This document shows positions 6,110 to 41,494 of a stretch of DNA of 64,000 nt, one piece after another. Source of the DNA: Thermofilaceae archaeon (GTDB lineage: Archaea > Thermoproteota > Thermoprotei > Thermofilales > Thermofilaceae); contig JAWCCZ010000002.1 of the NCBI GenBank assembly GCA_038861545.1, positions 192,001 to 256,000 of the forward strand, in the 5' to 3' direction. The notes under the pieces were generated by a model. It was not told where the DNA came from and did no database searches. It was given only the letters and a program-made list of their open reading frames with translations. Position 1 is the first letter of the stretch. Each line of letters opens with the position of its first letter. A program made the position numbers and the translations under genes.

Positions 6110-8009
6110 GGAGAAATCCAATCATTAAGGCAATTATAACTAATGTGGCTGTAATTATTATCTCAACAGGGATAGGCGCTTGTACTTCTTTTCCTTCAGG
6201 GATTTCTTGTCCCGGTTCCTCCGCAGGAGGCTGCTCTGGAGGTGCTGCTGGCGTTTCCTCCCGTTTTTCAGGTTGAATATAGTTTATCTCCTCGTAAGTT
6301 TGGCCTACATTACCTGCAAGGTCCCATGCTATGGCTTCCACTCGTAGGGTCGTCGCATTAAGCACCGGCAGCTCAACCTGGTAACTGTTCACGCCAATCT
6401 CTCGAGCTTCTAGCTCCCCTGATTCACTGCCTGTTGAGTACTTAACTAGAACTTTCCAAACCCCCCAACCTGAGTCGGATACCCGAAGATATAAGGTTAC
6501 GCGATCTTGCTGTGCAACCGGCCTCCTAGGCGTGTAAAGCGCAAAATTGATAGAGGGGCGTTCGTTATCCGCGTAGCTGGCTACGGTTACAAGGGACGTG
6601 GCAGGCTGGACGCTTAAGGTTAAGTGCGTTAAATGCCATGGAGCGTACGCTTTTGAATTTAACTCTTTAACTAGAGTTTTATTGCCGAACAAGCTGTAAG
6701 AATGCATGGGGATAGACCCGTTAAGGTATAGCGACGCCTCGATCTCTTTAATGGGTAACCCTAGTCTAGGATCCAGCTTAGCGAGTACAGTAGCAGCCTC
6801 GCGGCTTGCATCATATAAGATACGAAATACTGTACCATCCAACGTAAACGAGGAAGGTTCACTTAACGGGTTCTTCCCTGCCTGCCCTATAACTTCGACG
6901 CGGCCTTGCGCGTCAATAGAAACTATTTTGAAGCCCCTCCAATCCGCGCTGCCACCTGTCGTAGTGGTAGTAACGAACCAAGTTTTGTTATTATATACTA
7001 CAAGCCCATCCCCGTGAACGTGTCCGGAGAGCACTAAGCTCACCCCCCGCTCCTCTACAATCCTCAAAAAACGTTGAAGTTCCTCGGTGCGCTCAGCCCA
7101 GCTACTGTAAATGTAGCTGCTCAGTTTATCAGACTCTCTCCACGATCCCTCCACAGATGCGAAAAGGTTATAGCGGAAAATTGGGTGATGCATTAAAACG
7201 ATCTTAACCTTATTTAGATTAGCTGCCATGATTTTATCAAGCCATTCAAGCTGTTGCATGTCAGCATAGCCAGTCATACCAGTATCTAAGCTCGCTATCA
7301 GGAAAGGCCCTATTACCCTGTACCAGTTGGCGGGACCCACATAACGACCGTAGTATTTCTCAGAGAAGCTCTTGGCATCCGTTTGCGAGTGATCATGATT
7401 ACCTGGTATGAAAAACATGGGTTTCCTGATGCGATTAGCCAACTCATACAGGGTTTTAAATGCATTAATATCTGAGCCTATATCTACGCAGTCCCCAGTA
7501 ATAGCTACTAAATCTACTTGAAGAGTATTAACCAAGTTGAAGGCTGACTCAACGTACACTGTGCTTCGAACACCCCCAACTATTACCTCTACATGTAGGT
7601 CAGAGAGATGAGCTATGGAGAGCTTATTTGGTTCCTTCTCCAGTAGCCATATACTTTTAGGCTCCATAACGAGTTCGCCGGATACATTTAAGTAAAGGTC
7701 GTAAAGATTCGGCTCTGCTTGAACAGGAGCTTCGAATATTAAAGTAAAAGTATCACCGGTAGAGCCTGAGCTGATCAGCCTTAAAGTATAATTTACTCCC
7801 GGAGCCTTTATCCACGCTCCAGTGACCCTGCTCGAACTTAAAAGCGTTACATTAAAGTTTTGTCCGGGAAAAACCACAATTGGCATCGAGTACCTTGGGT
7901 CTATTACCCTCACTTCAGGGCTAGCTAAAACATAAGATGTTGTAAGGTATAGAAGAATAACGTAGAAAACCGCGGTAAGCGATTTAACATAAATTTCCCT
8001 ACTCCCCAT
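6087..8009 (-). CDS. Secreted, C-terminally anchored calcineurin-like metallophosphoesterase
   Basis: Signal/TM at N-terminus; DLH, GD, GNHD, HH and GHVH motifs; Pro/Glu-rich linker, TM helix and basic tail (MRRKRS). Confidence 0.85.
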   Translation of the reverse strand: MGSREIYVKSLTAVFYVILLYLTTSYVLASPEVRVIDPRYSMPIVVFPGQNFNVTLLSSSRVTGAWIKAPGVNYTLRLISSGSTGDTFTLIFEAPVQAEPNLYDLYLNVSGELVMEPKSIWLLEKEPNKLSIAHLSDLHVEVIVGGVRSTVYVESAFNLVNTLQVDLVAITGDCVDIGSDINAFKTLYELANRIRKPMFFIPGNHDHSQTDAKSFSEKYYGRYVGPANWYRVIGPFLIASLDTGMTGYADMQQLEWLDKIMAANLNKVKIVLMHHPIFRYNLFASVEGSWRESDKLSSYIYSSWAERTEELQRFLRIVEERGVSLVLSGHVHGDGLVVYNNKTWFVTTTTTGGSADWRGFKIVSIDAQGRVEVIGQAGKNPLSEPSSFTLDGTVFRILYDASREAATVLAKLDPRLGLPIKEIEASLYLNGSIPMHSYSLFGNKTLVKELNSKAYAPWHLTHLTLSVQPATSLVTVASYADNERPSINFALYTPRRPVAQQDRVTLYLRVSDSGWGVWKVLVKYSTGSESGELEAREIGVNSYQVELPVLNATTLRVEAIAWDLAGNVGQTYEEINYIQPEKREETPAAPPEQPPAEEPGQEIPEGKEVQAPIPVEIIITATLVIIALMIGFLLMRRKRS

Positions 8010-8066
8010 TTTTATCAGGTAAAAAATCTCCTAGGATTTAAAACTATTTTATCAGAATAATGTTAA

Positions 8067-9143
8067 CTACTCGAACTCCAGCTCCTCCCAGCCCCGGGCA
8101 GGGTAAACTTTAACGTCTTCACTCCTTATGTATAACTTTATTGGAGCTCCCTCGTCGACTTTCTCCTCTGGATCGATATAAGCTATCACCCGATCCCCAT
8201 TAGCATTAACTCTAAGCTGCTTGTAAGTACCTAAAAACATAACTAACTCGACCCTACCCTCTATTTGATTAGCACCTGAAATAGGGGTCAGGGAGAAATC
8301 TTCCGGCCTGAGGACAGCTATAGCCTCGTCCCCTACCTCTCCAACGGTTATACCCTCCAGTTGCAATCCGTTGCTCGTAACTAGCTTAACCCGATCCAAT
8401 TGTTTACCATCAACCCGGCCTTTTAGTAAACTGCCACGTCCTATGAAAGTAGCTATAAAAAGATTTAATGGTTTAGAGTAAACCTCGATGGGAGTGCCAA
8501 CTTGCAATATGCGGCCTTTATTCATTACAGCTACTCTATCTGAGATGCTCATCGCTTCCTCTTGATCATGAGTCACGTAAATTGTGGTTATCCCCAAACG
8601 CTTTTGGAGTCTTTTAAGCTCCTCCCTCATCCTAAGCCTGAGCTTAGCGTCTAAGTTGCTTAGTGGCTCGTCCATTAATAGAACCTTCGGTTCAACTACC
8701 AGGGCTCTGGCTAAAGCTACACGCTGTTGTTGACCACCGCTAAGCTGCAACGGGTAGCGGTTTTCAAGCCCTTCAAGGCCTACCAGTTTTAAAACTTCAT
8801 TTACCCTTCTTCTGATCTCGCTCGAGGCTGCGCCCCTTACCTTTAAACCATAAGCAACATTTTCGAAAACAGTCATATGCGGCCATAGAGCATAGTTCTG
8901 GAACACCATAGCGCAGCCCCTTTCAGACGGTTTCTTGAAGGTTACATCCTCCCCATCAAAAGTTACGTAGCCACTGTCAGGTAGCTCAAAACCGGCTATA
9001 ATTCTCAGCGTAGTCGTTTTCCCGCAACCCGAAGGCCCAAGCAGAGTAAATAGCTCGCTGTGTTCTATACTCAGCGTCACATTGTCAGCAGCTATTATGT
9101 TCTCAAACTTCTTTGAAACTCCTTTAAGGTCTACTCTCGTCAT
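8067..9143 (-). CDS. ABC transporter ATP-binding subunit (FbpC/PotA type)
   Basis: GPSGCGKT, LSGGQQQR, DEPLSNLD and a C-terminal TOBE-like region. Confidence 0.95.
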   Translation of the reverse strand: MTRVDLKGVSKKFENIIAADNVTLSIEHSELFTLLGPSGCGKTTTLRIIAGFELPDSGYVTFDGEDVTFKKPSERGCAMVFQNYALWPHMTVFENVAYGLKVRGAASSEIRRRVNEVLKLVGLEGLENRYPLQLSGGQQQRVALARALVVEPKVLLMDEPLSNLDAKLRLRMREELKRLQKRLGITTIYVTHDQEEAMSISDRVAVMNKGRILQVGTPIEVYSKPLNLFIATFIGRGSLLKGRVDGKQLDRVKLVTSNGLQLEGITVGEVGDEAIAVLRPEDFSLTPISGANQIEGRVELVMFLGTYKQLRVNANGDRVIAYIDPEEKVDEGAPIKLYIRSEDVKVYPARGWEELEFE

Positions 9144-9145
9144 AC

Positions 9146-10951
9146 CTACACCCCGATGTAAGCATACCGCTGCTTAAACACTACGTTTACCAGAGTAATC
9201 ACAAACAGCTGAGTAGTTATTAGTAACACACCCAGAGAAGCTACAATATAAGGTCCACCAACTCTCTCAAGGTAATCCATCATAATGTAGGTGATTGGAG
9301 CGCTATGCCTCTCCCCCATCCCGCCTAAACCCCCAAGCGTTACACTGGTGCTTGTTTCACTCATACAGTATACAAAGCTTACCATGACGCCGCTTAGCAG
9401 ACTTAAACCGATTAATGGAAGAACTATATTTATTAGAGTCTTAAACCTTCCTGCTCCCAGGTTCAAGGAAGCTTCTTCCAATGCTATGTGGATTTGTTGA
9501 AGACCTGCAAAAACAGCCCTAGCTGTAAATGGCAACCTCCTTATAGCGTAAGCTAAGACTAATAGCGCCGATGGCCCGCTCGAGATAGGATCCAAGATTG
9601 ATCCCCGGAAAAATGAAGAAAAAAAGTAAAAATACCCAACAGCTAGCACCAGACCTGGTATCGCAACCGGAGAAGTTACTAGGAGATCCAGCAGCTCGAG
9701 TCCTCGAAAACGAGCGATAACGTAGGGGGCTGAGACCCCGATGAAAGCTATTAGGAGTAAAGCGAAAAGCGAGTAGGTTAAACTGTTAAGTATAGCTCTA
9801 GACACTAGGGGGTCTGAAACCATAGAACCTAAATGCTCAAGTGTAAATCCTTCAGGTAGAGGGCCTGTCCACCGCTCAGCGAACGCATAGGCGAAGACTG
9901 CTAGCTGTGGGAAAGCAGAGAACACTAGTAGGGGTGTTAATGCTGTATATACTGCCAGTTTACCTTTTAAACCCAGCCTAGTTACCCTTGGCTTCCACCT
10001 ACCACCCCTACTTAGCATAGCGTACTGCTTCAAAGTCACGTACTTCCTGATAATAGTGAATATAACTAAGGCAAGCATTAGTAAAATCACGGCCAGCTGA
10101 GCGGCAGCCGGTGAAAGCTGACCGGTTGTAGCCTCGATAAATCGGTTAAAAACCTGATAGGATATTAGCCTATGCTCGTTAAATACTATTGGCGCAGCTA
10201 CATCCTCTAACGAGAATATGAAAACCAGTGCAGCACCAGCGGCGAGGCCAGGTAAGGATAAGGGTAAGGTTACTGTTCTGAATAGTCTTAAACTCTTAGC
10301 TCCAAGGTTCTCGGCTTGTTCTTCTAAACTCGGATCAATGTTAACCATGCTAGCGTAAACGTTGAGGTAAACTAAGGGATAGAAAGTCATAATTTGCGCT
10401 ACAGCGACTCCTGCTAATTCCGTAATCCCCAATCTAATGGGTAAACCTAACACGTCGCAGATAAGCCATGATACGATGCCGTCCCTCCAGTCAAATAGCT
10501 TCCTTATTACAAATGAGTTTATAAAAGGTGTTTGAAGAAGAGGTACAGTGGCTAAGATTCTCAGTGCTTGCTTACCCTTAAAATCGTACCGCGCGAAGAT
10601 AAATGCAACGATGACACCGATAACACTGGCGGCGAAGGTTACTACCAGGCCGTTTAAAATAGAGTTAACGACTGCACTGAAACTAATGCCTGTAATCTTG
10701 AAAACAGTAACCTGTCGACCTCGGAACACCACACTACTGGCTGTTAAAAGATTGCTTTTCGGTTTAAGGTCGAAGTAAGTTGGATCATTTAGTAGGTAAG
10801 CCGGATTGTAAAGAGAAGCTGCATAAATAACCGACGCTAAAGGGGCTACTAAGAGAAACATAAACATTAAAACTGGTAAAACTATCAGGATGACTAGAAA
10901 AGGATCAAAGTAGAAAAATAATCTATCTGGTTTACGGAACACACTTTGCAC
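9146..10951 (-). CDS. ABC transporter permease (FbpB/AfuB type, duplicated TMD)
   Basis: Two EAA-like motifs (LEEQAENLGA, LEEASLNLGA) and about 12 TMs. Confidence 0.9.
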   Translation of the reverse strand: MQSVFRKPDRLFFYFDPFLVILIVLPVLMFMFLLVAPLASVIYAASLYNPAYLLNDPTYFDLKPKSNLLTASSVVFRGRQVTVFKITGISFSAVVNSILNGLVVTFAASVIGVIVAFIFARYDFKGKQALRILATVPLLQTPFINSFVIRKLFDWRDGIVSWLICDVLGLPIRLGITELAGVAVAQIMTFYPLVYLNVYASMVNIDPSLEEQAENLGAKSLRLFRTVTLPLSLPGLAAGAALVFIFSLEDVAAPIVFNEHRLISYQVFNRFIEATTGQLSPAAAQLAVILLMLALVIFTIIRKYVTLKQYAMLSRGGRWKPRVTRLGLKGKLAVYTALTPLLVFSAFPQLAVFAYAFAERWTGPLPEGFTLEHLGSMVSDPLVSRAILNSLTYSLFALLLIAFIGVSAPYVIARFRGLELLDLLVTSPVAIPGLVLAVGYFYFFSSFFRGSILDPISSGPSALLVLAYAIRRLPFTARAVFAGLQQIHIALEEASLNLGAGRFKTLINIVLPLIGLSLLSGVMVSFVYCMSETSTSVTLGGLGGMGERHSAPITYIMMDYLERVGGPYIVASLGVLLITTQLFVITLVNVVFKQRYAYIGV

Positions 10952-10958
10952 CCAACTT

Positions 10959-12398
10959 TTAGCCGCCTAAGGATTTTAGAACGGTAGAATAGCGGTCAAT
11001 CGCTGCGCGCTTCCACATAGTAATCAATACATCTTTAAAAGCTGCATCGGATTGAAACTTTTCACATATGGATATTGCATAGTCCTGAGTAAATGTAACG
11101 TTTTCAGATGTTAAAGGATCTGTAAAATTGAGTGGAGCAGTAATCGCGTCCACATACTTTTGATACTCACTCTCCGAAAGCTTACCGGAGAAATAATTGG
11201 CAAGTAAGGCTTTCCAAACGGCTCTCAAGTAATCCTTCACCTCCACAAGCGTGGCTCTAAAGTACCACTGCATAACCGGCTCGTAAGACAATGCCAGCGT
11301 ATCGTTAAACTCGATTGAAGGGGTTTCTAAGGCTCTTTCATAAGCTTCTTTCAAGTCAACTCTACTCGAACCTTCAGGAGTCTCAAAAACCCGTGGATTC
11401 GCTGGTAATCTATTTATCTCGGGGTCCAACCATATTTTCTGCCCCTCTGTTAAGACCCATGCAATAAAAGCCTGCGCAGCCTCCGGGTTTTCACTCCCGA
11501 TGACGAGAGCTATCGGGTCACCGTTAACTATACTTTCACCTTCTGGTACTATATATTCACAGTCCGGGTTAATATACTTGGCAGTATAGCCATAGAAATC
11601 GATCGTTATTGCAGCTGCGGCATCACCTTGAATCACCGCGTCTCGAGCATCACCGCTACCAGGGTAAATTTCCGCGTTCGCGGCCATCAGAGTTAAAAGC
11701 CTCCAACCCTCGTTCCACCCATAGCGTTGAAGGATGATTTCATACATTCGAGTATGGCTTGTGCTTTGAGTAGGGTCAGCTATAGCAAGAGCCGGTTCAT
11801 TAAACTCCACAAGAGTTTTACCCAGCGTAGGGGAAGCCAAGTCTGACCAGCTACGTGGAACGGGGAGATTATAATCCCTTAATCTTACATGGTTAACTGT
11901 GAAACCAAAGCTGGAGATAGCGGCTGCTACCCAGTATATTTCACCGTTCTTCATGCGCTTCATAGGTACACCCATAATTTCATCAGGCACTTGAGTAGCC
12001 GCCTCTATAGCAGCTTTAGATGTTAAAGGCGCTAATAATCCTCTCTGAAATAGTGAATCGAAAAGTGTTGGCCCTCCGCCCCATGCTACATCAGCTTTCT
12101 CACCGGTAATGTAACTTTCCCACAAGCCGGGTGGTAATCCAACTGTTTTTAAATCCGTAATATTGTATTTTTTAGCCACGTCACTGGATAGGAACATTCG
12201 ACGTGCCTTCACAAGTATTTCAGTTGGATGCCTACTTATTACAACCAGCTGTACACTTTTTGATAGTTGATCGCCTGGAGGGGTTTCAGTGGGCTGGCTT
12301 GGAGTGGGTGGTTTCTGAAATAACAAAATCATGATAATTAATCCAACTGCTAATACTGCTATTAGTGCAATCGCTATGGTTTTGCTAATACCTTTCAT
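10959..12398 (-). CDS. ABC transporter substrate-binding protein (FbpA/AfuA family), N-terminally anchored
   Basis: N-terminal TM with Pro/Thr linker; DVAWGGG, P-x-SW-x-DL and ADPTQSTS motifs; operon position. Confidence 0.85.
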   Translation of the reverse strand: MKGISKTIAIALIAVLAVGLIIMILLFQKPPTPSQPTETPPGDQLSKSVQLVVISRHPTEILVKARRMFLSSDVAKKYNITDLKTVGLPPGLWESYITGEKADVAWGGGPTLFDSLFQRGLLAPLTSKAAIEAATQVPDEIMGVPMKRMKNGEIYWVAAAISSFGFTVNHVRLRDYNLPVPRSWSDLASPTLGKTLVEFNEPALAIADPTQSTSHTRMYEIILQRYGWNEGWRLLTLMAANAEIYPGSGDARDAVIQGDAAAAITIDFYGYTAKYINPDCEYIVPEGESIVNGDPIALVIGSENPEAAQAFIAWVLTEGQKIWLDPEINRLPANPRVFETPEGSSRVDLKEAYERALETPSIEFNDTLALSYEPVMQWYFRATLVEVKDYLRAVWKALLANYFSGKLSESEYQKYVDAITAPLNFTDPLTSENVTFTQDYAISICEKFQSDAAFKDVLITMWKRAAIDRYSTVLKSLGG

Positions 12399-22608: not shown

Positions 22609-22720
22609 TGTATTGAAATAGAATGGTTCAAATCTGATTACCTCTAAGGTTTTAAAAGTAATTAACAAGAATTCAGATATAATGCCAGAGAATAAAGTAA
22701 AAATCTCTTAAATAAGAAAA

Positions 22721-24646
22721 TTAGTATGGAGCCAGCCACGTAGACTTTACCATTATGGCAAAAGATATTAACAGCGAAGTTGCTACACCATATCCAACGA
22801 CTGCACCAGCGTACACAGACCATTTAAGCCTCTCTACTGTTTCACGCTTGAAGCGAATTAGAATCCTATAAATTACGTGACCGATAGCTATCGATATCGC
22901 GTACGGAGGTATAGTTGAAGCTCCCACAGTAAATATCACGAGCGAGAATGGGATGCGTAAAACCTTCGTGACAAAGTGTAGAAGAACTCCTAGTATGAAT
23001 GCTGCTTCGAGAATAGGGTAGCTTTGACCCGGGTTTAGCAAAATCGATTGAAAAGCAGTGCCTCTCGTAATCCATAAGCAGCTTTGGATCACGTTTATGG
23101 GCCAGCTAGCTTGAGCCCAAGGATATGCTTGAGATGGAATCGGACCGAACAACCAAATGATACTCGTGTGGATGAAACTCATTATCAGCGAAAGAGGTAT
23201 CGCGATAGCGGCCACTGTGAGCACAACATCCCTAAGTTTTAATCCTATGTAGCGAGCCACGTAGAAGCGTGTACACCAAGTAACTCCATCACCCGGCATG
23301 GGGGCCAGCCAAGCACTGACTCCAAGCTGGCTGTGAACCGGTATATTACCTGAAGTCTGCGTAGTTATCAGAACTATCTCCCTCAGCGGTATTTGAGCCA
23401 CCGAGTAACCGGTTTCTCCGACACCCCTCGCGTTAATTAGAGTAGAGAATAACGGCCAAAACACCGTCAGAATAGTTAAAGGAAGTATTGGAAATGATGG
23501 AAGGAGCAACGCTAAACTCGCCGTCCAAGCAGCAACGCCTAGAAAATAAATCGCTAACAACTTCCAATACGAGAATCCGACTGGTGCATTACCCCTCGCG
23601 CTACCTCCAAGTGTTGAGAAAGCACTTTTAAGGAACCTGCCTATGCGTGTTAGCTCAACAACCATTATCGCGAAAGTTAAGCCCACGAACGCGCTGCTCC
23701 AAACATGTAGGTACGTGAACTGCCAGTTCAGCGTTATATTGAATCCTGGTGTCCACTCAGGAACCAAATCCCTGAAGTAGGATAACAGTAAGGAGTTACC
23801 GATTATCCATATGGTGATAGAGCCGATTAGCATAAGTACAACGTTAAATGTCGGAAGAATCAATCCTGCAAAGAATGTGAATAAGTCTGTAGCGATTCCT
23901 AGCAGAGTGCCGGGTAAGCCCAGCAAAGATTCGGCCCCTACTGATAGGTCAATAAAAGGTACCGGTATTAGCGTTACCACTCTGCCTCCCATCGTAGAGC
24001 CCAGTATATACGGTGTATAAACAAGCAGTGCGTAGACAAAAGCCGCTATAAAACCAAGAACCATAGCTCGCATTTTCTCATGCTCTCTTTCGCCCAGCGT
24101 AACAGCAATCTCTGCATCCACCCTAGCGAAGGGGAAAGGAAGTTTCTCCTCTATTACGTACATTTGATAAGCAAGGTATCCCAAGGGGAGTTCTATCACA
24201 AGCGGTAAAATAACCCCTAAGACAATTGAAACAAGAATTGGAATGAACCACTCCGGGTGAAGGAAAGTTCTGATTACCTGTTGTCTGATCAGAGGGTTAC
24301 TGGGAACCCACCATTCTGGTAGGTATTCAGTTACGCCGAAAGCCATTGCTTCAGGGCTGTTAGCAAAGTAAACCCTGTATATGAACTGGAAAAAGAACAC
24401 ATTATAGGCGGAGAGGCTTATTGCCAGATTCATCAAGTATATCTCCTGTGATGAAAGGAAACGGCCTCCAAAACTCCTGAGCACAAAGTTAAACAATAGA
24501 ATAGTTGTAAATGCAAGTCCTCCCGCGGCTCCCCCTATTAAGTTCATCCATATAGCTACTGGCATCAATGCGAGCGACGCAAAAATAGCAGCCAGTACAA
24601 CGCGGAAGGTTATACCGCTCACCAATTGGGATTCTTGTATGCTCAT
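22721..24646 (-). CDS. OPT-like polytopic membrane protein (putative transporter subunit)
   Basis: About 16 TMs; GITFRVVL, LSSQE and EEKLPFPFARV motifs; the ATG at 24646 overlaps the upstream stop (ATGA) and follows a G-rich SD. Confidence 0.7.
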   Translation of the reverse strand: MSIQESQLVSGITFRVVLAAIFASLALMPVAIWMNLIGGAAGGLAFTTILLFNFVLRSFGGRFLSSQEIYLMNLAISLSAYNVFFFQFIYRVYFANSPEAMAFGVTEYLPEWWVPSNPLIRQQVIRTFLHPEWFIPILVSIVLGVILPLVIELPLGYLAYQMYVIEEKLPFPFARVDAEIAVTLGEREHEKMRAMVLGFIAAFVYALLVYTPYILGSTMGGRVVTLIPVPFIDLSVGAESLLGLPGTLLGIATDLFTFFAGLILPTFNVVLMLIGSITIWIIGNSLLLSYFRDLVPEWTPGFNITLNWQFTYLHVWSSAFVGLTFAIMVVELTRIGRFLKSAFSTLGGSARGNAPVGFSYWKLLAIYFLGVAAWTASLALLLPSFPILPLTILTVFWPLFSTLINARGVGETGYSVAQIPLREIVLITTQTSGNIPVHSQLGVSAWLAPMPGDGVTWCTRFYVARYIGLKLRDVVLTVAAIAIPLSLIMSFIHTSIIWLFGPIPSQAYPWAQASWPINVIQSCLWITRGTAFQSILLNPGQSYPILEAAFILGVLLHFVTKVLRIPFSLVIFTVGASTIPPYAISIAIGHVIYRILIRFKRETVERLKWSVYAGAVVGYGVATSLLISFAIMVKSTWLAPY

Positions 24647-27600
24647 GCAAACCACCCCCCAGCTTTTTCGATATACAGTTTTCTATCTTCTTCTTTTAGA
24701 GAACGCCAAACTAGCAGCCGTTTCCTGACCTCATCTACAAATCTCAGGTGATTAGCAATCCAGAGCTGGCGAGGGCCTGAAAGGTGTTCACTAGTCAGGA
24801 TAAGGCGAAATCTTAGTTCGCGTGGGCCTTTCCTAGCAATTAGCTGAATGCGCTCTTCAACTCCTAACTCGTATGGCCTTAGTCGAACCCTCATATCTGA
24901 TATGTAGGCTGTCTCCCTTCCTGACACGCTCTTAGAGTATGAAAGCCCAGTCACCATAAATGGCTGGGCTTCGCTACCGTAGGCGCGAAGGGATTCTCCA
25001 ATGAAAGCTAGTAATCCTCTCGACTCAGCTTCATTCCTAACGGTGAAAGGTAGCGAAATATCCCATCTACTTCCTCTAGGTCCAGAGGATGGCCTCCACT
25101 TTCGCTCAAGGGAAGGTACAACGATTTTCGATGCCATGTAGGCGGGGTAGACAGATGCTGTAACCACAGCTAAAATCGACACCAAGATACTCGTCACCAC
25201 AGCTAGAGATGCATAGTTAAGTAATGGACCAGCTGCAACAGGTCCTAAAGCAAGACCTAAAGTATACCCTAGCGGTGCACTAAGAAAAGCATATGTGAGA
25301 ACTTCTCCGAAGAAAACACCAGCCGCATCTCTCGGGCTAGCACCCACAGTAGCGTAAACCTGCATGTCCCGCATCCTTTCATATAAAGTTCCTAGAACCA
25401 CTGACACTAACATTAGGAAACTTATCACCATAGGCACAAGTACAAACTGCCATCCTCCACCTAAGTAAGCTACTTCTCTTCGTAGATAAAGGAAACTGGA
25501 GCCTGGAGCTTCTTCCGTAGCTGCATATACATTATGGGAATAGAACCCTATATACTCACTTAATTCATTGGCAACTTGCCTTATTAGATCCTTATCGTTC
25601 GACAGTAAAGCTACAGAAAAGGGATACCCACCTAAGCGCATGGCAAGCTTATATGGTATGTAAACAACCCCCCAATATGCCCGCTCCTTGATTGGCCCCG
25701 TTTTAAGGGGGTCAAAAGGTACGATTGGCTGACCGTCTAAGTCATATATCGTTCTAAGCAGTCTGCTGTCTATAATTCCCATTACAGTAAGCTCCATGCC
25801 GTAAAGGTATACCCTGTCACCTGGCTCTAGATTCAAAGTTCTGGCTATATCATCAGTTACATAGCATTGAAACTCATCATCAAGCGTGAACCATGGACTT
25901 AATGCCTCTATAATTACATTCTGGAGTTCTAAAGCTTCAGCCTCAGCCTTAGATAAGCCGATTATTCCGCTTATTAGCACCGACTGGCCTGCAATGTTAA
26001 ACAAATATATTCTCTGAGCTGGAATCCAAACCCTTGGGACAATTTTCATTTTTTCACCGTAAACCGTTGTCAAGTAATCAAGGAAAATAGGGTTGATTGG
26101 CTGAAAAGCTTCTCTACGTGTAACTAAAACTCCCGTGTAACGTGGGCTCCAAGTTACAGCTGGCTGTCCTGGTGGAGGTAAAGTAACTGTAACCCATGTG
26201 GAAGAGAGAGCGACAAATGATACTGTCGAGAACGTCACTAACGTTACGCCAATAATTGTAAGTACAGTCCTCATATGTCTTCGCCTCAGGTTCTCCACTC
26301 CTATACTGATAGCAGTCATGGTCAACGATAACCTGTCAACGGTAACGAACATAGGTCCCATAAACCTGCTACGTATTTCTCTCACTATATTGCTGAATTC
26401 GTCAAACATTAATATCATCACAGGGATAACTAGTATTAGCGAAGTAGCGCCGAGAGCCGTTAGGAAAGAGTAACTCGCCACTTTAAATCCAGGATGAAGT
26501 AAATACTGAATTACAGTCAGCGTTAACATTATCGAAACCAACGCTATTAACCGTTTCTTTCCCTCATAGTGTAGCACCAATCTTTCGAACATAAAGACGA
26601 ATGGTAAATTAAGCAAGAAAAAGAAAACCATTGCAACTCCCGTATCAATCACCATTGACTTGCTTTTCTCATAAGCATAAAGTGCGTAGTACCAAGCTTG
26701 TACGGTGTAGGCATAGTAATCGCTATAGCGGTATTCCATCAGAGCACTTTCAGCGAGCTCGAGATTTCTAAGAGCTTTTCTATAGAACTCATCTAAATCT
26801 GCTGCTGTGGCCCCCATAAGACCTGCGCCAGTGAGAGCTTCAACCCTTCTTTTCACGACAGCTAGCAGATCTCTTGTGACTCTGAGTATCGTGGGAGCCG
26901 TATCTAAATAGTTAAAGGACACCGGCACTCCTTCCTCGTCGTTTATGAGTAACCCAATCGGATTCCCCCCACTGGTGAGAACCATCTTAATGCAGATATC
27001 CTTTGGAACAAATACCACAGCTTCGTAACCTGAGGTTGGATCAGTTAACGTGAATCTCCCTTCTGGTTTTTCAAAAATGGGTGGCTCTGATACAACATAG
27101 CTGTAACTTGTTAACCCTATACCTGACCTGTCAAGTATTTGTATACCCCCAACTGGAGGGGTCAAGAGGGAACGTGGATCAAAGAACTCATGCAGCGCTA
27201 ATGTCGCCGACCTAAAGACTGCCAAGTTGACTAACTTTCTACCGCTTCCATCAATTAATTCTGTTTCAGAGGTAAAGAAGGTGTAACCGTAGGGCCAAGA
27301 TCTCGTACCGTAAACACCATAATCTGGAGCAAAAACTATATCGCCGGTTAACTTATCAATGATAAAGGGTAAAACCTGGTACTTAGCCACCGGCACTGCC
27401 CATCCGACACTTGGCGTCAATCCTTTCAAAGTAAAAGTCCCGTCCCTATCAGCAAGCTCTACCCATTCATGCCCAAGAAGATCGTTTCTCTCAAGAATCT
27501 TTACGTGTAGGACCATTTGATACCTTTCCTCTCTCAGATAGTCATGCCAGCTGTAGTTGTACCAGCCATGCTTAATATCCCATCTTCCAACCCTACCTTT

Positions 27601-29223
27601 CACAACGGTAAACCCAAGACCTCCTGTTTCAAAGTGCGTATGCGTTGGAATAGCCCTTCCCATAATTGACGCTTTGTCATAACTAATCCAAGATATATCA
27701 TCTATTATCGCCCTAGCTAAGACAAATGAAAGTTCTACCTGAGGCCATAGGTTCTCAAAGTTTAATTTATCTAATGTGTCGAGGGGAGTTCCGTAAAGCG
27801 GCCGTGCAGTTAATGCTGTTGTAAAAGTTATCCCCCAAATACCCACTTGAGCTATAACAGCTGCATCAAAATGTCCTGGAGTTTGCAGATAACGGCGGTC
27901 AAGCTGTAAGCCAAAAGCAGTATACGTAAGGTTCCCAAGGCGTTCTTTGAGTTTTTCCCTAAGCTCGTCGCTACCCAAGTAGTATGTTCCAGAGCTCTCA
28001 TTATACCTGCCATACCTACCCCGTGTGAAAAAGAGTGAGTAAAGGTCGTTATAACCGTACCAAGAATACCATACCTGTACACCGTAAAAAGTGCTTCCCG
28101 CGACAGCGGCAATAGCTCTCGATTCGGTTGAGAAATCAAAGCCAACGGCGAACCATAGTGTGTATGAGGTCAAGGAAGAGGCGTCGTTGCTACCTATGTG
28201 GCTGTAATGCCAAATGAAGCTAGAATTCTGGATATCTCGTCGATGCCAAACAAAATTCCTAGCACCTGCCATAGCTTGAGCGTGGCCTGATAGAGCTACG
28301 AGCCAAACAGACCTCTTAGGTGGATACTCTTTTAGAATCCTCGCAAATTCTAGTAAAGCTGTGATTCCTCCGGCTTCGTTCGCACCTGGAGCCAGTGCCG
28401 GTACTATAGAGTTGGAATCATAGTATGCTACTACGACAACTGCATTTCGCCACTCTGCAGGATCGGTCCCCTTTATAACCGCGACTATGTTTTTAGCGGT
28501 AACTCTTTCCCACGTCATATTGACTACAACACGCGCCTTAACTTTCCCAACGCCGTAGTTTCTGATAAGTTCCCTCAAATAACCGGCATCACCACTGCTT
28601 ATGTAAATTCTTGGGAATTTCACGGGGATATCCAAGCTTTTATGCTCAGCTTCACCTCTTAAGGTAAATACCGGTTCAATGAATACTACAGCTTTAGCAC
28701 CAAGTCTCATAGCGTTAAGCCAATTATCTCTAGAGTTGAACTCCATTAACGCAATGCTACCGTTAATAGGCAATCCATTCAACTCCTCAAGCGACCCCTC
28801 ACCAACGTACACTAGTGGACCTTCAAAAACCCCGCTGCATGTTTGAACGTTATTGGGTAAAAGGGCATAAGCTTTAATCTCCCTGTAAGTGGGGTCAAGA
28901 ATAACGATCTTTGAGCCCCAATCCATTGGTATAGTTACGTTGTATTCTTCTACAAAAGTTTCTAAGCCCAGCGTGCTGTTAAAGTAGTCGAATATGTAGT
29001 TTGCTACCTCAATGCTTCCAGGATAACCGGTGTACCTACTCCGAGAAGCTATATACCTTAAGTGTTCGATAATTTTACTACGATTAATCGTCAGCAGGGT
29101 AGTCTGTATAATGTTATCAGTTTCAGAGAACTCAGCTAGAACTCCTCTAAATAAACCTGCAGGATACGGTAAAGCCGATAAAATTAATACGAGCACCAAA
29201 GCAAACTTCAACCACTTATACAT
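24643..29223 (-). CDS. 1526-aa fusion: signal peptide, PA domain, degenerate M28 peptidase domain, TMs, MacB-type extracytoplasmic domain and FtsX permease domain
   Basis: RYTGYPG; GPLVYVGEG; NIVAVIKG, AYYDS, PGANEAGG and ALLEFAR; ENLRRRHMRTVLTIIG; YERMRD-x-VGASP; YPAYMAS. Confidence 0.8.
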   Translation of the reverse strand: MYKWLKFALVLVLILSALPYPAGLFRGVLAEFSETDNIIQTTLLTINRSKIIEHLRYIASRSRYTGYPGSIEVANYIFDYFNSTLGLETFVEEYNVTIPMDWGSKIVILDPTYREIKAYALLPNNVQTCSGVFEGPLVYVGEGSLEELNGLPINGSIALMEFNSRDNWLNAMRLGAKAVVFIEPVFTLRGEAEHKSLDIPVKFPRIYISSGDAGYLRELIRNYGVGKVKARVVVNMTWERVTAKNIVAVIKGTDPAEWRNAVVVVAYYDSNSIVPALAPGANEAGGITALLEFARILKEYPPKRSVWLVALSGHAQAMAGARNFVWHRRDIQNSSFIWHYSHIGSNDASSLTSYTLWFAVGFDFSTESRAIAAVAGSTFYGVQVWYSWYGYNDLYSLFFTRGRYGRYNESSGTYYLGSDELREKLKERLGNLTYTAFGLQLDRRYLQTPGHFDAAVIAQVGIWGITFTTALTARPLYGTPLDTLDKLNFENLWPQVELSFVLARAIIDDISWISYDKASIMGRAIPTHTHFETGGLGFTVVKGRVGRWDIKHGWYNYSWHDYLREERYQMVLHVKILERNDLLGHEWVELADRDGTFTLKGLTPSVGWAVPVAKYQVLPFIIDKLTGDIVFAPDYGVYGTRSWPYGYTFFTSETELIDGSGRKLVNLAVFRSATLALHEFFDPRSLLTPPVGGIQILDRSGIGLTSYSYVVSEPPIFEKPEGRFTLTDPTSGYEAVVFVPKDICIKMVLTSGGNPIGLLINDEEGVPVSFNYLDTAPTILRVTRDLLAVVKRRVEALTGAGLMGATAADLDEFYRKALRNLELAESALMEYRYSDYYAYTVQAWYYALYAYEKSKSMVIDTGVAMVFFFLLNLPFVFMFERLVLHYEGKKRLIALVSIMLTLTVIQYLLHPGFKVASYSFLTALGATSLILVIPVMILMFDEFSNIVREIRSRFMGPMFVTVDRLSLTMTAISIGVENLRRRHMRTVLTIIGVTLVTFSTVSFVALSSTWVTVTLPPPGQPAVTWSPRYTGVLVTRREAFQPINPIFLDYLTTVYGEKMKIVPRVWIPAQRIYLFNIAGQSVLISGIIGLSKAEAEALELQNVIIEALSPWFTLDDEFQCYVTDDIARTLNLEPGDRVYLYGMELTVMGIIDSRLLRTIYDLDGQPIVPFDPLKTGPIKERAYWGVVYIPYKLAMRLGGYPFSVALLSNDKDLIRQVANELSEYIGFYSHNVYAATEEAPGSSFLYLRREVAYLGGGWQFVLVPMVISFLMLVSVVLGTLYERMRDMQVYATVGASPRDAAGVFFGEVLTYAFLSAPLGYTLGLALGPVAAGPLLNYASLAVVTSILVSILAVVTASVYPAYMASKIVVPSLERKWRPSSGPRGSRWDISLPFTVRNEAESRGLLAFIGESLRAYGSEAQPFMVTGLSYSKSVSGRETAYISDMRVRLRPYELGVEERIQLIARKGPRELRFRLILTSEHLSGPRQLWIANHLRFVDEVRKRLLVWRSLKEEDRKLYIEKAGGWFA

Positions 29224-29272
29224 AGGTAAATCACCATCAAAAGTAAAAAAGATTCTAAGATTTTAAAACATT

Positions 29273-31318
29273 CTACCTGCCTTGTATAGCGAACACTATA
29301 CCCCTAGCTGGCAGGTAACCGATGAAAGCACCTATGAATAGGCCGAGGAACGCTGGAAAAGCTTTCTCTTCATAGAACTTAGATCCAAAGATCTTAAGTA
29401 TTAAGAACTTAATTACGTATGCTACTAAACCATAGAGGAACGCGTAGAAACTCACGGAGAATAGCATTAATCCAACAGGGTTAAGTGGGAACCAGGCGAA
29501 ACGCATCCTAGCAAAACCCATAGCGAGCACTAATAGTACACCGAGTAAAACATTCAAGTAGAAGTACGGAGCTTTATCTCCTCCATAGGGTCCGAAACCT
29601 CCCTTCATTAAACCGTCAACCGTAGCGGGCCATACCAGCTGCTGACCAGCCCACCAATCCGCTACATAGTTTTTCACACCAACGTTCGAGATAACCTGAG
29701 CTAACAGCGTGAAAGTCAAGGGTACAGCAACTAACGTTGCTATTAATTGTGCTATAAAGACTTCTTTAAGGTCGGTTTTCGTGGACTCGGCTATGCTCAT
29801 AGCTTCAATACCAGCAATACCATAGTTCCACTGTGCATACCATTTCTGACCTGGCCCCTCTACGAAATTCCTTGTCACGTAAAGGTGTAATGCTTGTTCA
29901 CCAGTTAACGGAGTATAGAAGCCAGGAGCTGCACCTACAGCTACAGCTAGATGATAGAAACCGTTTGACAAGATATCGCTGCCTCCTGTCCACGGTCCCC
30001 AATTCCCTGCCATAAAACCGGGCCAGACGTCTCCTCTTATTCTAATCTGGGTGAACAACGAGAATGCTAGAACAAAAACTGCATAGAATGCTAACAGGGG
30101 ATGTGCACCAGATACAGACATGAAAGCAAATAACAGCGCAGTTGAACCAATTATCATTACCCATATAGTTCTGTAGGACAGCGGTACATTACCCTTGCCG
30201 CCCCTAGACAAAGCCTTCAACGTTCTAGTTAAGTGGTGTCTCGCCATCCATATGGTTAAAATACCAATGCCTATCCACACACTGTGATCAAGTATAACCT
30301 CAGGCATTATTGGTGGAGTATCCATACCCATAGTGTAGAAGACCGGCCATTCTGATGATCCAAACATCGGCTCTCTAAAGCCTCCAGCAACCGCTATTAT
30401 CGGCCATATTATCCAGAATACAATGAAGGCGACTATACCTGTTAACAGTATGTCAAGTGGGAACAAAAGATAGTAGCTTAAACCTAAGATATCTATACTC
30501 CATGCTATCAGAGCATTAGTGAAAGGAGTTGGTAATTGTCCAACATAAGACACATCGTAACCTATGTATGAGGGTATAGATTGTTGAATAGCAGGTACTA
30601 ATTCGACACCAGGTGGCCCTTGCACATTTATTAAAAGCCCAATTGCGAAGGCGACCCAGAAGAAAATAGATTTCCATAGATTTGGTATCCTACCTCCCTC
30701 CTTTACAGTTGTACTTTGAATTGCAAGCCATTCAGCAACTCTTGCTAGTGGATATTCAAGCCTTTCAACTTCGAGGAACTGCTCCTTGTAAAGTAACGCG
30801 ATACCATATGATAACGCGAAAAGCATTAATTGTATGAAAGTGAAAAGTATAACTGTAGGGAAAAGCGCGCTTATTGGAGCTCCTCCGTCCCAGAGCTGGT
30901 CTTTAAGACCTTTTGGTACCCAGAAACCGGGAACAGCATCCCAGCTTAACACGAAATCAGACTGAAGGATGCCGAAAAGATACGAAAATGTAGCTAATCC
31001 TACACAGAAAGGCACTGGCACCATACTCCAGATAATAGCATAAACTATGGTGTTTTCCTGTGCAGAGAGCCGCTTTCTAAGTATTAATGAACTTAGTAGA
31101 CTCGTGATAACTAAGGTCAAGAGAAAGACGAAGTACTGAGTGCCAAAGAATACCATTACTCTAAGAGTCCGCCTAACCGATAATCGCGGCCACCAGTATA
31201 AAGGTAGAATGAAAAGAATTCCAGCCACCAAACCTATTAGAAGAGCTCTCAATGTTAATCCTTTAGGCCTCACCTCAACTGTGGCTCCAGAGGTGATTTG
31301 AACACCTTCTGTGCTCAT
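29273..31318 (-). CDS. OPT-like (DUF6785/DUF6784-type) polytopic membrane protein
   Basis: About 16 TMs; GLTLRALLIG, LSAQE, ERLEYPLARV, and C-terminal RMRFAWFPLNPVG...KFLILKIFG...Y...PAFLGLFIG; family name from recall. Confidence 0.7.
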   Translation of the reverse strand: MSTEGVQITSGATVEVRPKGLTLRALLIGLVAGILFILPLYWWPRLSVRRTLRVMVFFGTQYFVFLLTLVITSLLSSLILRKRLSAQENTIVYAIIWSMVPVPFCVGLATFSYLFGILQSDFVLSWDAVPGFWVPKGLKDQLWDGGAPISALFPTVILFTFIQLMLFALSYGIALLYKEQFLEVERLEYPLARVAEWLAIQSTTVKEGGRIPNLWKSIFFWVAFAIGLLINVQGPPGVELVPAIQQSIPSYIGYDVSYVGQLPTPFTNALIAWSIDILGLSYYLLFPLDILLTGIVAFIVFWIIWPIIAVAGGFREPMFGSSEWPVFYTMGMDTPPIMPEVILDHSVWIGIGILTIWMARHHLTRTLKALSRGGKGNVPLSYRTIWVMIIGSTALLFAFMSVSGAHPLLAFYAVFVLAFSLFTQIRIRGDVWPGFMAGNWGPWTGGSDILSNGFYHLAVAVGAAPGFYTPLTGEQALHLYVTRNFVEGPGQKWYAQWNYGIAGIEAMSIAESTKTDLKEVFIAQLIATLVAVPLTFTLLAQVISNVGVKNYVADWWAGQQLVWPATVDGLMKGGFGPYGGDKAPYFYLNVLLGVLLVLAMGFARMRFAWFPLNPVGLMLFSVSFYAFLYGLVAYVIKFLILKIFGSKFYEEKAFPAFLGLFIGAFIGYLPARGIVFAIQGR

Positions 31319-31709
31319 CGATTACTAAATAAGAATTATCCGTTTATATAATTTTCCATAATTTTTTTAAATAGATTTAAGTCAGGTTGGTCTAAATATC
31401 TCTATATTTTTTGAAAAAGGTTTGAATAACCTAATTAAGAAAAACTATTACTGATCATTATGCTAAAAATTAACGGATATTTTTATTTAATAATTCCCTA
31501 GCTGTATAATTGCCTACTTAATTAATATTAAACTTAAATTTTTAGCTTATAATATTCATCTTTATGATGATGTTTAATTTCAAATTTATAAAATTATCTA
31601 AACATCTTCTCTCTATTTAAAAGCTTAGAAATAATACTTTAAAAATAAATATTTTAACTAACTATTCTAACCGAAAATCATATTAACTTGAAAGATTAAT
31701 CTTATTGGA
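31319..31709. promoter_or_regulatory. Extremely AT-rich divergent intergenic region with several TATA-like boxes
   Basis: Hand counts give 10-12 G+C per 60-nt line at 31501-31680. Confidence 0.6.
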
Positions 31710-35732: not shown

Positions 35733-37001
35733 CTACGGGTAAAAGCTGCTACCGTACGCGGTCTCGAGCATAGCGACTACGTTCCGAGGCGGTGTACGAG
35801 GCTGAATGTTATGTACTTGGCAGAAAACGTACCCCCCACCCCTCTTAAATACCTCGACGCTAGCCTTTACATGTGCAACCACATCGTCAACTTGAGCGAA
35901 AGGAAGCACATGCTGTGTGTCGGCACCGCCTCCCCAAAACGCTAGCTGCTCGCCGAACTCCTTCTTCAACCGTTCTGGTTCCATGTTCCTAGCAGAAATT
36001 TGAACCGGGTTCAATGCATCCACGCCAGCGTCGATAAGGTCCGGTATTAGCTCATACACGGACCCGCATGAGTGAAGGAAAACGAACATTTTTGAATGCT
36101 TCTTCACGTACTGGTACAGCTCTTCGTGGTACGGTTTCAGCATTTCCCTGTAAACTTTCGGCGGGATCTGTGGACCCGCTTGAGTTCCTAAATCGTCGCC
36201 GAACTCGATTACATGGATGAAATCCTTTAAAGCTTCCACGTACTTTTTCACGTTGTGTAGGTTCACCTCAAGCATGTAGTCGAGAATCTTCGAAGCTAGG
36301 CTTTTTCTAAAGGTTAAGTCTACCAGCCACGTACTCCAACCACGCAACCCTTGACCCCACTCGTGGAAACCCGAGTACGTGGAGTACATAAGGGCGTAGT
36401 CGGTGGTCCTGTAAAGGTGCTCAGCCTTCCTCCTCACCCATTCAACTTGGGCATCGCTAACCTTATACATGTCCCAGTTGTAGCTGTCAACCTCCTCAGG
36501 GCTCTTTACCCCAGCTAAAGGATGATCGCTTTGCCAGCTATTGACACCGCCGAAGTAGTAGCTCCCTCTTGGCATCCTTGACACAATTTTGCTACTTGCG
36601 TTTCTGATAACCCAGCCGCCTTCTCCATCCGGCTCCGGGTTAAACCACTCAGGGATTTCGCATGGAGTACCATCAGGTAAAACCCACGGTTTCCATCTCC
36701 GCCCGTCAGGACCGCATGGGTCTAGGCTCCTCGTAACATCCAGCACGTCGACGTGGAAGAGCTCGAGTATACTTTTTTCTGGTTCAGCGAGCTGTTGTCC
36801 TGTATCGTACACACGGATTACACCGCCTTTAAAGTTGAGGTATCTCCTTAACCCCGCGTAGGCTACTGCGTGGATACCGGTTGAAGCCATTGCACCTAAG
36901 TCGATTGGTACTCTATCGGGCTCCTCATGACGTAGTGCAGCAATAACGCGTTCCCTGCGGCTCATCCACTCTTTAGTGGACACGCTTCCTCCACTAGACA
37001 T
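35733..37001 (-). CDS. Uroporphyrinogen decarboxylase / MtaA-CmuA methyltransferase family protein
   Basis: EPDRVP, GDDLGTQ, HSCG, LNPVQ and GGYVFCQVHNIQ motifs. Confidence 0.85.
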   Translation of the reverse strand: MSSGGSVSTKEWMSRRERVIAALRHEEPDRVPIDLGAMASTGIHAVAYAGLRRYLNFKGGVIRVYDTGQQLAEPEKSILELFHVDVLDVTRSLDPCGPDGRRWKPWVLPDGTPCEIPEWFNPEPDGEGGWVIRNASSKIVSRMPRGSYYFGGVNSWQSDHPLAGVKSPEEVDSYNWDMYKVSDAQVEWVRRKAEHLYRTTDYALMYSTYSGFHEWGQGLRGWSTWLVDLTFRKSLASKILDYMLEVNLHNVKKYVEALKDFIHVIEFGDDLGTQAGPQIPPKVYREMLKPYHEELYQYVKKHSKMFVFLHSCGSVYELIPDLIDAGVDALNPVQISARNMEPERLKKEFGEQLAFWGGGADTQHVLPFAQVDDVVAHVKASVEVFKRGGGYVFCQVHNIQPRTPPRNVVAMLETAYGSSFYP

Positions 37002-40387: not shown

Positions 40388-41494
40388 GTGGAAAATCCGG
40401 TTGAAAATCTTGTATTAGACGTTTTCGAGGGGGCAACGGAGGCCATACCCTTCAATATTCGCCACGAGTACTGGTACCATGTTAACAGGGCAGCAAAAAC
40501 TTTACCGTACGAGTATGAGAGGCTCGACCTACCGGACATTTGCAAATTATGGAACGCTACCTGGAGATGCTACAGTGGCTACTATGTTGAAAGTTGCGTG
40601 AAAGTAGGGTACGAAAATATCGTTTTCAAAACCGAGGTAATTGACAACAGGACTATTACCTCCGTCTTAACCCCTTTTGGCGAGCTAAGAAGAGTGCTCG
40701 CATATGATCAGTACGGGTTATCGGCTCAAACCTTAGAATTCCCCGTTAAAAGTGTCAATGATTTTAGAGCACTCGAATACGTGTTAGGGAGCATTAAAGT
40801 TAAGTTTGACCACGCCGCGTATGAGAAGCTTAAACTACGGGCAGGTTCACAGGGCTTTATCACATACTTTTTCCCACACAGCCCTTTACAGGCATTGTTC
40901 CTTGACTGGGCCGGTATTCCAACTACTGTGAGGTTACTTAGGCTGGAAAGAAAAAGAGTCGAAGAGCTTATGGAAGCTATCCACGAGCACAACTGGGTGT
41001 TTTACAGGGAACTAGCCCGGTCACCTATGAAAATCCTCAACTTGGGGGAGAACATTGATGTAAGAATAACCTCCCCCGAGCTTTTTAGAAGGTACTGTTT
41101 ACCCATTTACGCAGAAGTTGCTGATTACTTACATGGTTATAACAAATATGTTCATATCCATGTTGATGGTTATGCCAAGCAGCTGCTTGCGCTGCTGGGA
41201 GAGACCGGGCTTGATGGAGTAGAGGCTTTAACACCAAAACCGGTTGGTGATTTTACTTTAGAGGAAGCTAAAGATCGAATCGGTGATATGGTGGTGCTAG
41301 ATGGAATACCTTACCTTCTGTTCCTACCTCACCTTGACTTGGAACTATTGAAAAAATTCGTATACAGGATTGTAGAATTATTTAGAAGTCAATTAATCTT
41401 AGGTATCTCTGATGAGCTTCCACCTCCAGCCGACCTGGAAAGGGTAAAGCTAGTTTCTAAAATGCTTGAAGAGTTAAATAGCCGTTCTAGCTAA
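40388..41494 (+). CDS. Uroporphyrinogen decarboxylase family protein (divergent)
   Basis: TPFGEL, EFPVK, SPELFRRY, HIHVDG, EALTPKPVGD and ILGISDELPP motifs. Confidence 0.75.
   Translation: MENPVENLVLDVFEGATEAIPFNIRHEYWYHVNRAAKTLPYEYERLDLPDICKLWNATWRCYSGYYVESCVKVGYENIVFKTEVIDNRTITSVLTPFGELRRVLAYDQYGLSAQTLEFPVKSVNDFRALEYVLGSIKVKFDHAAYEKLKLRAGSQGFITYFFPHSPLQALFLDWAGIPTTVRLLRLERKRVEELMEAIHEHNWVFYRELARSPMKILNLGENIDVRITSPELFRRYCLPIYAEVADYLHGYNKYVHIHVDGYAKQLLALLGETGLDGVEALTPKPVGDFTLEEAKDRIGDMVVLDGIPYLLFLPHLDLELLKKFVYRIVELFRSQLILGISDELPPPADLERVKLVSKMLEELNSRSS

Follow-up and report, generated by a model that had tools for sequence, protein, structure and literature searches.

The window analyzed here is a 64,000-nucleotide (nt) stretch of a Thermofilaceae archaeon genome (GenBank assembly GCA_038861545.1, contig JAWCCZ010000002.1, positions 192,001 to 256,000 of the forward strand). 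Three co-oriented genes on its minus strand, termed A, B and C, encode a putative receptor-permease system that is the subject of this report. An earlier note on this DNA had described proteins of 681, 1526 and about 641 amino acids (aa), with a 49-nt gap between A and B and an ATGA overlap of the gene B stop codon with the gene C start codon. This layout is borne out by the open reading frames (ORFs) and by the sequence. The features of the locus are given below in the direction of transcription.

31343 to 31350, minus strand: TATA-like box TATATAAA, read from the sequence, 25-32 nt upstream of the gene A ATG
29273 to 31318, minus strand: gene A, 681 aa, polytopic membrane protein, DUF6785/DUF6784 (ORF and Pfam)
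29224 to 29272, minus strand: A-B spacer of 49 nt with a T6 tract and GGTGA (sequence)
24643 to 29223, minus strand: gene B, 1526 aa (ORF), stop codon at 24643-24645
27664 to 29136, minus strand: gene B residues ~30-520, PA plus M28-fold extracellular domain that has lost the canonical di-zinc site (Pfam, alignment, Foldseek)
26644 to 27621, minus strand: gene B residues ~535-860, beta-rich domain and helical stalk (AlphaFold model m25d9a7c55357)
26269 to 26643, minus strand: gene B residues ~861-985, three extra transmembrane (TM) helices and a cytoplasmic elbow helix (model m5d2e7a8a9cdc, hydropathy profile)
25069 to 26268, minus strand: gene B residues ~986-1385, MacB/FtsX-type core with TM1, a periplasmic-core-like domain and TM2-4 (Pfam, Foldseek)
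24646 to 25068, minus strand: gene B residues ~1386-1526, conserved cytoplasmic alpha/beta C-terminal domain (model m5d2e7a8a9cdc)
22721 to 24646, minus strand: gene C, 641 aa from its ATG, divergent OPT-family permease (ORF and family profile matches)
22680 to 22720, minus strand: T-rich tracts just 3' of the gene C stop, a candidate archaeal terminator

The spacing of TATATAAA from the start of gene A fits that of an archaeal TATA box, and the element is a candidate promoter of a leaderless A-B-C transcript. Within the A-B spacer, GGTGA (approximately 29231-29235) forms a Shine-Dalgarno-like motif 8-12 nt before the start of gene B. Together with the terminal T-rich tracts, these signals would fit a single transcription unit for A, B and C. 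An alternative GTG start of gene C at 24655 would give a protein of 644 aa. The arrangement of the three genes is not due to chance, since dozens of genomes, archaeal and bacterial, show the same layout. The window has a G+C content of about 45% and carries archaeal marker genes such as NucS, and the nearest named homologues come from metagenome-assembled genomes (MAGs) of Thermofilaceae.

Gene B joins a large PA plus M28 ectodomain to a MacB/FtsX module, as had been read from the sequence, and both halves are now borne out by Pfam and Foldseek. In the extracellular half, Peptidase_M28 (PF04389) matches residues 245-352 at 42.3 bits against a cut-off of 21.3, and a phmmer comparison of gene B with the PA-M28 aminopeptidase 2ek8 gives an E value of 4.5e-13. 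An AlphaFold model of residues 26-845 (m25d9a7c55357) has a predicted local distance difference test score (pLDDT) of 81 and a predicted template modelling score of 0.85; the PA/M28 part is followed in it by a beta-rich domain and then a helical stalk. Foldseek matched this model to 2ek8 (E 2e-26) and also to PaAP, B. subtilis YwaD, transferrin receptor 1 (TfR1) and GCPII/III, over a range of E from 1e-21 to 2e-26.

The pseudo-peptidase status that had been suggested for gene B is borne out by an alignment with M28 enzymes (2ek8 and YwaD, 6hc6) and by column counts over 72 members of the B family, aligned with hmmalign. Relative to the enzymes, the first His ligand is replaced by Y267, the bridging Asp by E283, the Glu ligand by A315, the Asp ligand by Ser, the second His by G478 and the catalytic Glu by H314. 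The column of the catalytic Glu holds His in 61 of the 72 members and Glu in none. An active M28 peptidase was therefore dropped as a reading of gene B, the co-catalytic zinc ligands and catalytic Glu being replaced. Since the catalytic Glu is replaced across the family, gene B is a conserved pseudo-peptidase, or its site is at least remodelled. D269, which lies in the old active-site pocket, is invariant among the 72 members. Given that D269 and H314 are retained, the pocket may hold a remodelled binding or catalytic site.

TfR1 offers a parallel, as it too has a PA-inserted M28 fold that lost its catalytic site and kept its scaffold. The active proteins GCPII, 2ek8, YwaD and PaAP share the fold with gene B, which is without the canonical site. 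Two features set gene B apart from the inactive M28/PA receptors: it is fused to an ABC-type membrane module (ABC, ATP-binding cassette), and the former active-site pocket keeps both the invariant D269 and, in most members, H314.

The membrane half of gene B is matched by Pfam FtsX (PF02687) at residues 1260-1367 (37.4 bits, cut-off 25.5), and MacB_PCD reaches residues 986-1222 at 16.2 bits, under its cut-off of 27. An AlphaFold model of residues 840-1526 (m5d2e7a8a9cdc, pLDDT 80) begins with three extra TM helices and an elbow helix, which are followed by TM1, a periplasmic-core-like domain, TM2-4 and, last, a cytoplasmic alpha/beta domain of 140 residues. With Foldseek, this model was matched at a probability of 1.0 to MacB (5gko, E 2.7e-11), LolC/E, HrtB and YbbP, and further to YtrF and BceB. 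Isolated periplasmic domains were also matched, namely the periplasmic core domain (PCD) of MacB (3ftj, TM-score 0.61 by target length) and that of LolE (5udf, 0.53). By model and Foldseek, gene B thus has the core topology of type VII ABC proteins, in which TM1 and an extracytoplasmic domain of the Porter/Sabre type are followed by TM2-4. The C-terminal domain has residues that are invariant in the family, including W1488, R1500, K1501 and W1506. NCBIfam gave no useful match for A, B or C.

When the six B paralogues of this genome (described below) are compared region by region, identity is 20% in the beta domain, 24% in the PCD, 24% in the stalk and 39% in TM2-4. The most divergent part is therefore the beta-rich domain with its stalk (~20-24%) and the most conserved part is TM2-4, a pattern that would fit a variable specificity element placed atop a constant motor interface.

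The C-terminal half of gene B shares its TM1-PCD-TM2-4 architecture with the type VII systems MacB, LolCDE, FtsEX, HrtBA, BceAB, YbbAP and YtrEF, and the candidate partner ATPase presented below is likewise of the MJ0796/MacB/LolD type. A giant gene B product paired with a bare small FtsX protein would resemble the LolC/LolE heterodimer with its two LolD subunits. In contrast to these systems, gene B adds an ectodomain of ~830 residues, three further TM helices and a cytoplasmic tail of 140 residues; in archaea its ATPase is not encoded alongside and is apparently common to many paralogues; and its obligate neighbour is an OPT-fold secondary permease. We know of no OPT-fold permease that partners any type VII system. 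The system would appear, from sequence and models, to be a type VII ABC variant with a new kind of partner. FtsEX provides a second point of comparison because it also combines an FtsX-type module with peptidase-like extracellular domains, those of the hydrolases EnvC, PcsB, RipC and CwlO, whose state could be governed by cytoplasmic ATP hydrolysis. Unlike in FtsEX, the peptidase-like domain of gene B is fused rather than recruited and is without the canonical catalytic residues, and the A-B-C system occurs in six copies with no tie to cell division genes.

The two flanking proteins had been described as OPT-like permeases. For gene A, Pfam matches DUF6785 (PF20581; 55.9 bits, cut-off 25) and DUF6784 (PF20580; 37 bits, cut-off 26.4), with no direct match to Pfam OPT (PF03169). 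The C family comprises 415 representatives at 50% identity, and 26 of 46 sampled members match PF03169, the best at 4.9e-18. One such match is found in the same genome, in the C paralogue at C1:473776-474567 (39.1 bits, cut-off 25.8; C1, C2 and so on denote contigs of this assembly, whose 12 contigs total 1.63 Mb at a completeness of 92%). The placement of gene C in OPT would hold at the superfamily level, through its family and not by a direct match of its own.

The kinship of A and C is visible only with profiles; a direct BLASTP comparison of the two proteins was not significant (E 0.34). A hidden Markov model (HMM) of the C family matches gene A end to end (E 2e-8), and an A-family HMM built without any C members matches C proteins at 1e-38 to 1e-25. 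With hhalign, the two families align over 589 columns at a probability of 100 and an E value of 7.4e-40. These profile matches indicate that gene A is a full-length distant paralogue of gene C and hence a member of the OPT superfamily. Since the C family matches PF03169 and A is a full-length paralogue of C, the description of two OPT-like permeases is right at the superfamily level. In size (~640-680 aa) and polytopic nature, A and C agree with OPT/YSL proteins (Transporter Classification 2.A.67, PF03169). They differ in that characterised OPTs are solo proton-coupled carriers, whereas A and C are tied to a protein of the MacB type; in addition, the window's own A and C reach no direct Pfam OPT match. 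Characterised members of the OPT family are importers, and prokaryotic OPTs were biochemically uncharacterised as of a 2011 review of the family (PMC3061005).

Homologues of gene B of about 1500 aa occur in Thermofilaceae, Bathyarchaeia, Brockarchaeota, Micrarchaeia, Armatimonadota, Fervidibacterota and Ratteibacteria, with at least 80 full-length loci and 458 candidate relatives among species-representative genomes. To survey their neighbourhoods, ORFs were called in 86 fetched loci and classified with HMMs; loci in which B is flanked by at least 2.2 kb on either side were used for counts of C, and loci with at least 7 kb for counts of A and of the small FtsX gene described below. C is directly adjacent to B in 31 of 32 archaeal and 14 of 21 bacterial loci, and lies within 4 kb in 31 of 32 and 18 of 21, respectively, with one further bacterial case in which the two are fused. 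The arrangement is thus conserved across archaea and bacteria. A, on the other hand, lies within 7 kb of B in 13 of 15 archaeal loci and in none of 17 bacterial loci. The core of the system is the B-C pair, and A is an archaeal addition. Because A is missing from the bacterial loci, an obligate A-C heterodimer is not general, and the proposal of such a heterodimer as the transport core has to be given up in its general form.

The history of the B-C pair points in the same direction. Distance matrices of B and C correlate at r = 0.957 over 72 pairs. For the six pairs of this genome, r is 0.86, a value attained by 6 of 720 permutations. This correlation indicates that each B and its C have stayed together ever since the subfamilies diverged. 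In one Armatimonadaceae MAG, a single frame of 2488 aa (L063:9212-16678) encodes B, an acidic linker of ~65 aa and C; as it comes from a single MAG, the fusion may be an assembly error. A homologue search with the C-family alignment for longer fused forms found none, which is weak evidence, the L063 fusion itself having come from an HMM scan of ORFs.

The trio is not a unique machine but one of six paralogous modules in the genome. Six full-length B genes (1480-1540 aa) each adjoin a full-length C gene, and four have A nearby:

C2:214721-223318 (this window): order A B C
C1:240885-249563: B, then C and A divergent
C1:395894-404476: A divergent from B C
C1:469279-475716: order C B
C6:34932-43685: order A B C
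C7:18248-24650: order C B

At about 6.5-8.5 kb each, the six cassettes occupy ~3% of the 1.63-Mb genome. The paralogues are only 24-36% identical among themselves and most have closer relatives in other lineages; they are old subfamilies and not recent copies. In the C1:240885 module, the A paralogue comes in two pieces, C1:247455-247976 (173 aa) and C1:248091-249563 (490 aa), with a TGA inside the match, and is either a pseudogene or an assembly error. At a contig end, C8:21896-22348 encodes a 150-aa fragment of the A family that runs off the contig, and a further A gene or module may be hidden in the assembly gap there.

What might drive these modules is suggested by bacteria. In Armatimonadota, including the cultured Chthonomonas calidirosea (locus L085), B and C lie on one strand in a closely spaced operon with motor genes. 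The order, mapped in L085, L045, L044 and L004, is B and C followed by the genes below, of which Y is present in some loci:

X: ~280-325 aa, variable
Y: ~350 aa, soluble
PqqD-like: ~140 aa, PF05402 (E 9e-14)
Small FtsX: ~210 aa, four TM helices, no extracellular domain
ABC ATPase: 246 aa, LolD/MJ0796 type

Three Armatimonadota loci (L057, L063 and L080) have a further gene, partly similar to B, after the ATPase.

The small FtsX gene is present in 14 of 17 bacterial B loci, with the ATPase in the same operon, and in none of 15 archaeal loci. In the archaeon studied here, four of the operon parts are found as single best homologues scattered in the genome:

C3:19994-20710: small FtsX homologue, 107 bits, the next best being 26
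C3:20764-21492: ATPase homologue of the MJ0796/MacB/LolD group, 341 bits, adjoining the small FtsX gene
C4:224641-225048: PqqD-like homologue, 63 bits
C5:2653-3618: homologue of Y, soluble, 321 aa, 33.5 bits

The distribution of these parts was followed in one sample of 150 Thermoproteota genomes, 38 with B and 112 without. A full-length small FtsX orthologue, scored at 100 bits or more, occurs in 36 of the 38 and 5 of the 112; Y occurs in 33 and 2, respectively, and adjoins B in two genomes (G097 and G134). In three complete genomes of a sister genus of the same family (G082, G090 and G149), B, small FtsX and Y were not found with these queries, so that either this lineage acquired the system as a whole or the sister genus lost it. 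Since Armatimonadota encode the motor in cis and its genes accompany those for B across archaeal genomes, B is probably not ATPase-less and would share a common motor in trans. The simplest reading of these genomes is that one such motor would serve all six B cassettes. Five other large FtsX-domain proteins of this genome (714-1090 aa) carry other ectodomains (C1:134902-138156, C1:255369-257513, C1:389820-393092, C1:412737-415562 and C4:120563-123589); no ABC ATPase was found beside any of them, and they may be served by the same motor.

Taken together, we propose that A-B-C is one of six paralogous cassettes of a receptor-permease system with a shared in-trans motor and a role in uptake, a reading to which we give a rough probability of 0.55. 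B would act as a surface receptor and mechanotransducer, with its peptidase-like ectodomain and variable beta domain mounted on a MacB/FtsX-type module. C, joined in archaea by its paralogue A, would form the translocation pathway, each B working with its own cognate C. B probably borrows the single-copy small FtsX protein and ATPase encoded at C3:19994-20710 and C3:20764-21492, and the system probably also uses the Y-like 321-aa protein (C5:2653-3618) and the PqqD-like protein (C4:224641-225048). By analogy with LolC/LolE/LolD2, the FtsX module of B may pair with the bare small FtsX and two LolD-type ATPases. The ectodomain would bind an extracellular ligand, for example a peptide, glycopeptide or other oligomer, and ATP-driven movement of the FtsX pair could hand or release this ligand to the OPT-like permease, which would import it.

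A more specific form of this proposal is tentative: a hybrid transporter class in which a primary-active type VII mechanotransducer, made of a giant receptor, a bare FtsX and two LolD-type ATPases, is physically docked to an OPT-fold secondary permease and controls it, with one motor serving many interchangeable cassettes that differ in specificity. If true, Thermoproteota and Armatimonadota would possess a modular uptake system whose role resembles that of SusCD or the binding-protein-dependent ABC importers.

Several observations weigh against the shared-motor uptake proposal. The physical complex rests on genomic inference, and gene order and co-divergence are also expected of genes that are merely inherited together. 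A complex prediction with the TM pieces of B (840-1008 and 1252-1385) and C scored 0.06 against a mark of 0.32, which neither supports nor opposes binding. Gene C of the window has no Pfam match, none to PF03169 at E <= 0.1, and a sequence-profile search of the PDB with the C family returned no solved structure at E <= 1. The assignment of the ATPase is not unique, as a second orphan ATPase (C5:60848-61594, 329 bits) is nearly as similar, and a common motor could just as well serve the five other ATPase-lacking large FtsX proteins. The phyletic counts overstate independence, as they come from related genomes of about eight families; the search for B scored only three candidates per genome. The cytoplasmic PqqD-like and Y proteins would also fit export. 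Expression is scarcely documented: one metatranscriptome (X1) yielded three short contigs of at least 99% identity at 25524-25739, 27205-27380 and 29484-29813, which are unstranded, carry no information on transcript start or co-transcription and could reflect DNA carry-over, another (X4) yielded one read on the locus, and two more (X2 and X3) none. Lastly, no consistent hint of a substrate comes from the neighbourhood. Among 117 flanking genes tallied in archaea, the commonest are GFO/IDH/MocA (8), URO-D (5), Asparaginase_2 (4) and AP_endonuc_2 (4), with GH38, GH53, GH129 and GHL10 at 2 each, which could be taken as a weak sugar or glycoconjugate flavour; the other five loci of this genome sit among unrelated genes.

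The alternative that survives best is a machine for export or envelope assembly, in which the ATPase/FtsX pair and B would act outward, the OPT-like proteins would export or flip a cargo or precursor, and the PqqD-like protein would hold a peptide cargo. Type VII folds are the nearest found for B, and to our knowledge all characterised type VII ABC systems (MacB, LolCDE, FtsEX, HrtBA and BceAB) act outward or on the envelope. The PF05402 protein and soluble cytoplasmic Y of the bacterial operons also suit such a machine, the PqqD fold being known as a peptide-binding element in pathways for ribosomally synthesized and post-translationally modified peptides. We nevertheless consider export unlikely. 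The six to eight cassettes of each small genome are deeply diverged, most of all in the ectodomain, and so look like a set of uptake specificities; the neighbours lean weakly towards catabolism (GFO/IDH/MocA, GH38, GH53, GH129, Asparaginase_2). The loci showed neither precursor-peptide nor biosynthesis genes, and import is the direction of the characterised OPT-family members (PMC3061005).

A second alternative treats the three proteins as separate transporters under common regulation, where B would be the subunit of a MacB-type exporter and A and C independent importers that share operons for the sake of one pathway. Unrelated transporters often cluster in bacteria and archaea, and a B-C interface is not demonstrated. 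Against such independence, adjacency of B and C persists down to ~25% identity and across two domains, with the order permuted and the contact kept; their distances correlate at r 0.96; the ATGA overlap couples them translationally; and one in-frame fusion joins them. This explanation appears improbable. Least probable of all is an ATPase-less, receptor-gated permease, in which B would be a passive extracellular protein for binding and docking and the proton gradient would drive an A-C heterodimer: no ABC ATPase lies beside the six loci of this genome or beside any of the 15 archaeal loci that extend for 7 kb or more, and the extra TM helices and tail domain of B are not seen in MacB, but ATPase and small FtsX share the operon in 14 of 17 bacterial loci and track B across archaeal genomes, TM2-4, which in MacB-type systems meets the ATPase, is better conserved than any other region of B, and the absence of A from bacterial loci removes the heterodimer as a general core.

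That no characterised transporter with this architecture is known, as stated earlier, agrees with the literature: searches on DUF6785/DUF6784 and on FtsX with M28 and OPT or permease found no paper describing the system. Nor are we aware of any description of an OPT-fold permease coupled to a type VII ABC module. Should B and C pair physically, theirs would be the first instance of a secondary carrier that works with a MacB/FtsX-type mechanotransducer. Such a pairing would also provide the first functional context for prokaryotic OPT-like proteins and would explain the many 'orphan' FtsX giants that are without an ATPase. Chthonomonas calidirosea, which is cultured and has the whole system in one operon (L085), makes the question experimentally approachable.

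A few neighbouring genes deserve mention in their own right. Directly beside the C1:469279 module, C1:466193-469135 encodes a form-III-like RuBisCO large subunit and an MTTB-family methyltransferase, and a TldD/PmbA peptidase pair lies on the opposite side. URO-D-fold genes recur near modules, at 35733-37001 and 40388-41494 of the window and at C1:393180-394271, which adjoins the C1:395894 module. The window also holds, at 6087-12398, a conventional binding-protein-dependent ABC importer that is unrelated to A-B-C. It consists of a solute-binding protein, a 601-aa permease whose single BPD_transp_1 family match falls into two stretches, and an ATPase carrying a TOBE_2 domain; a calcineurin-like phosphoesterase of 640 aa adjoins it.

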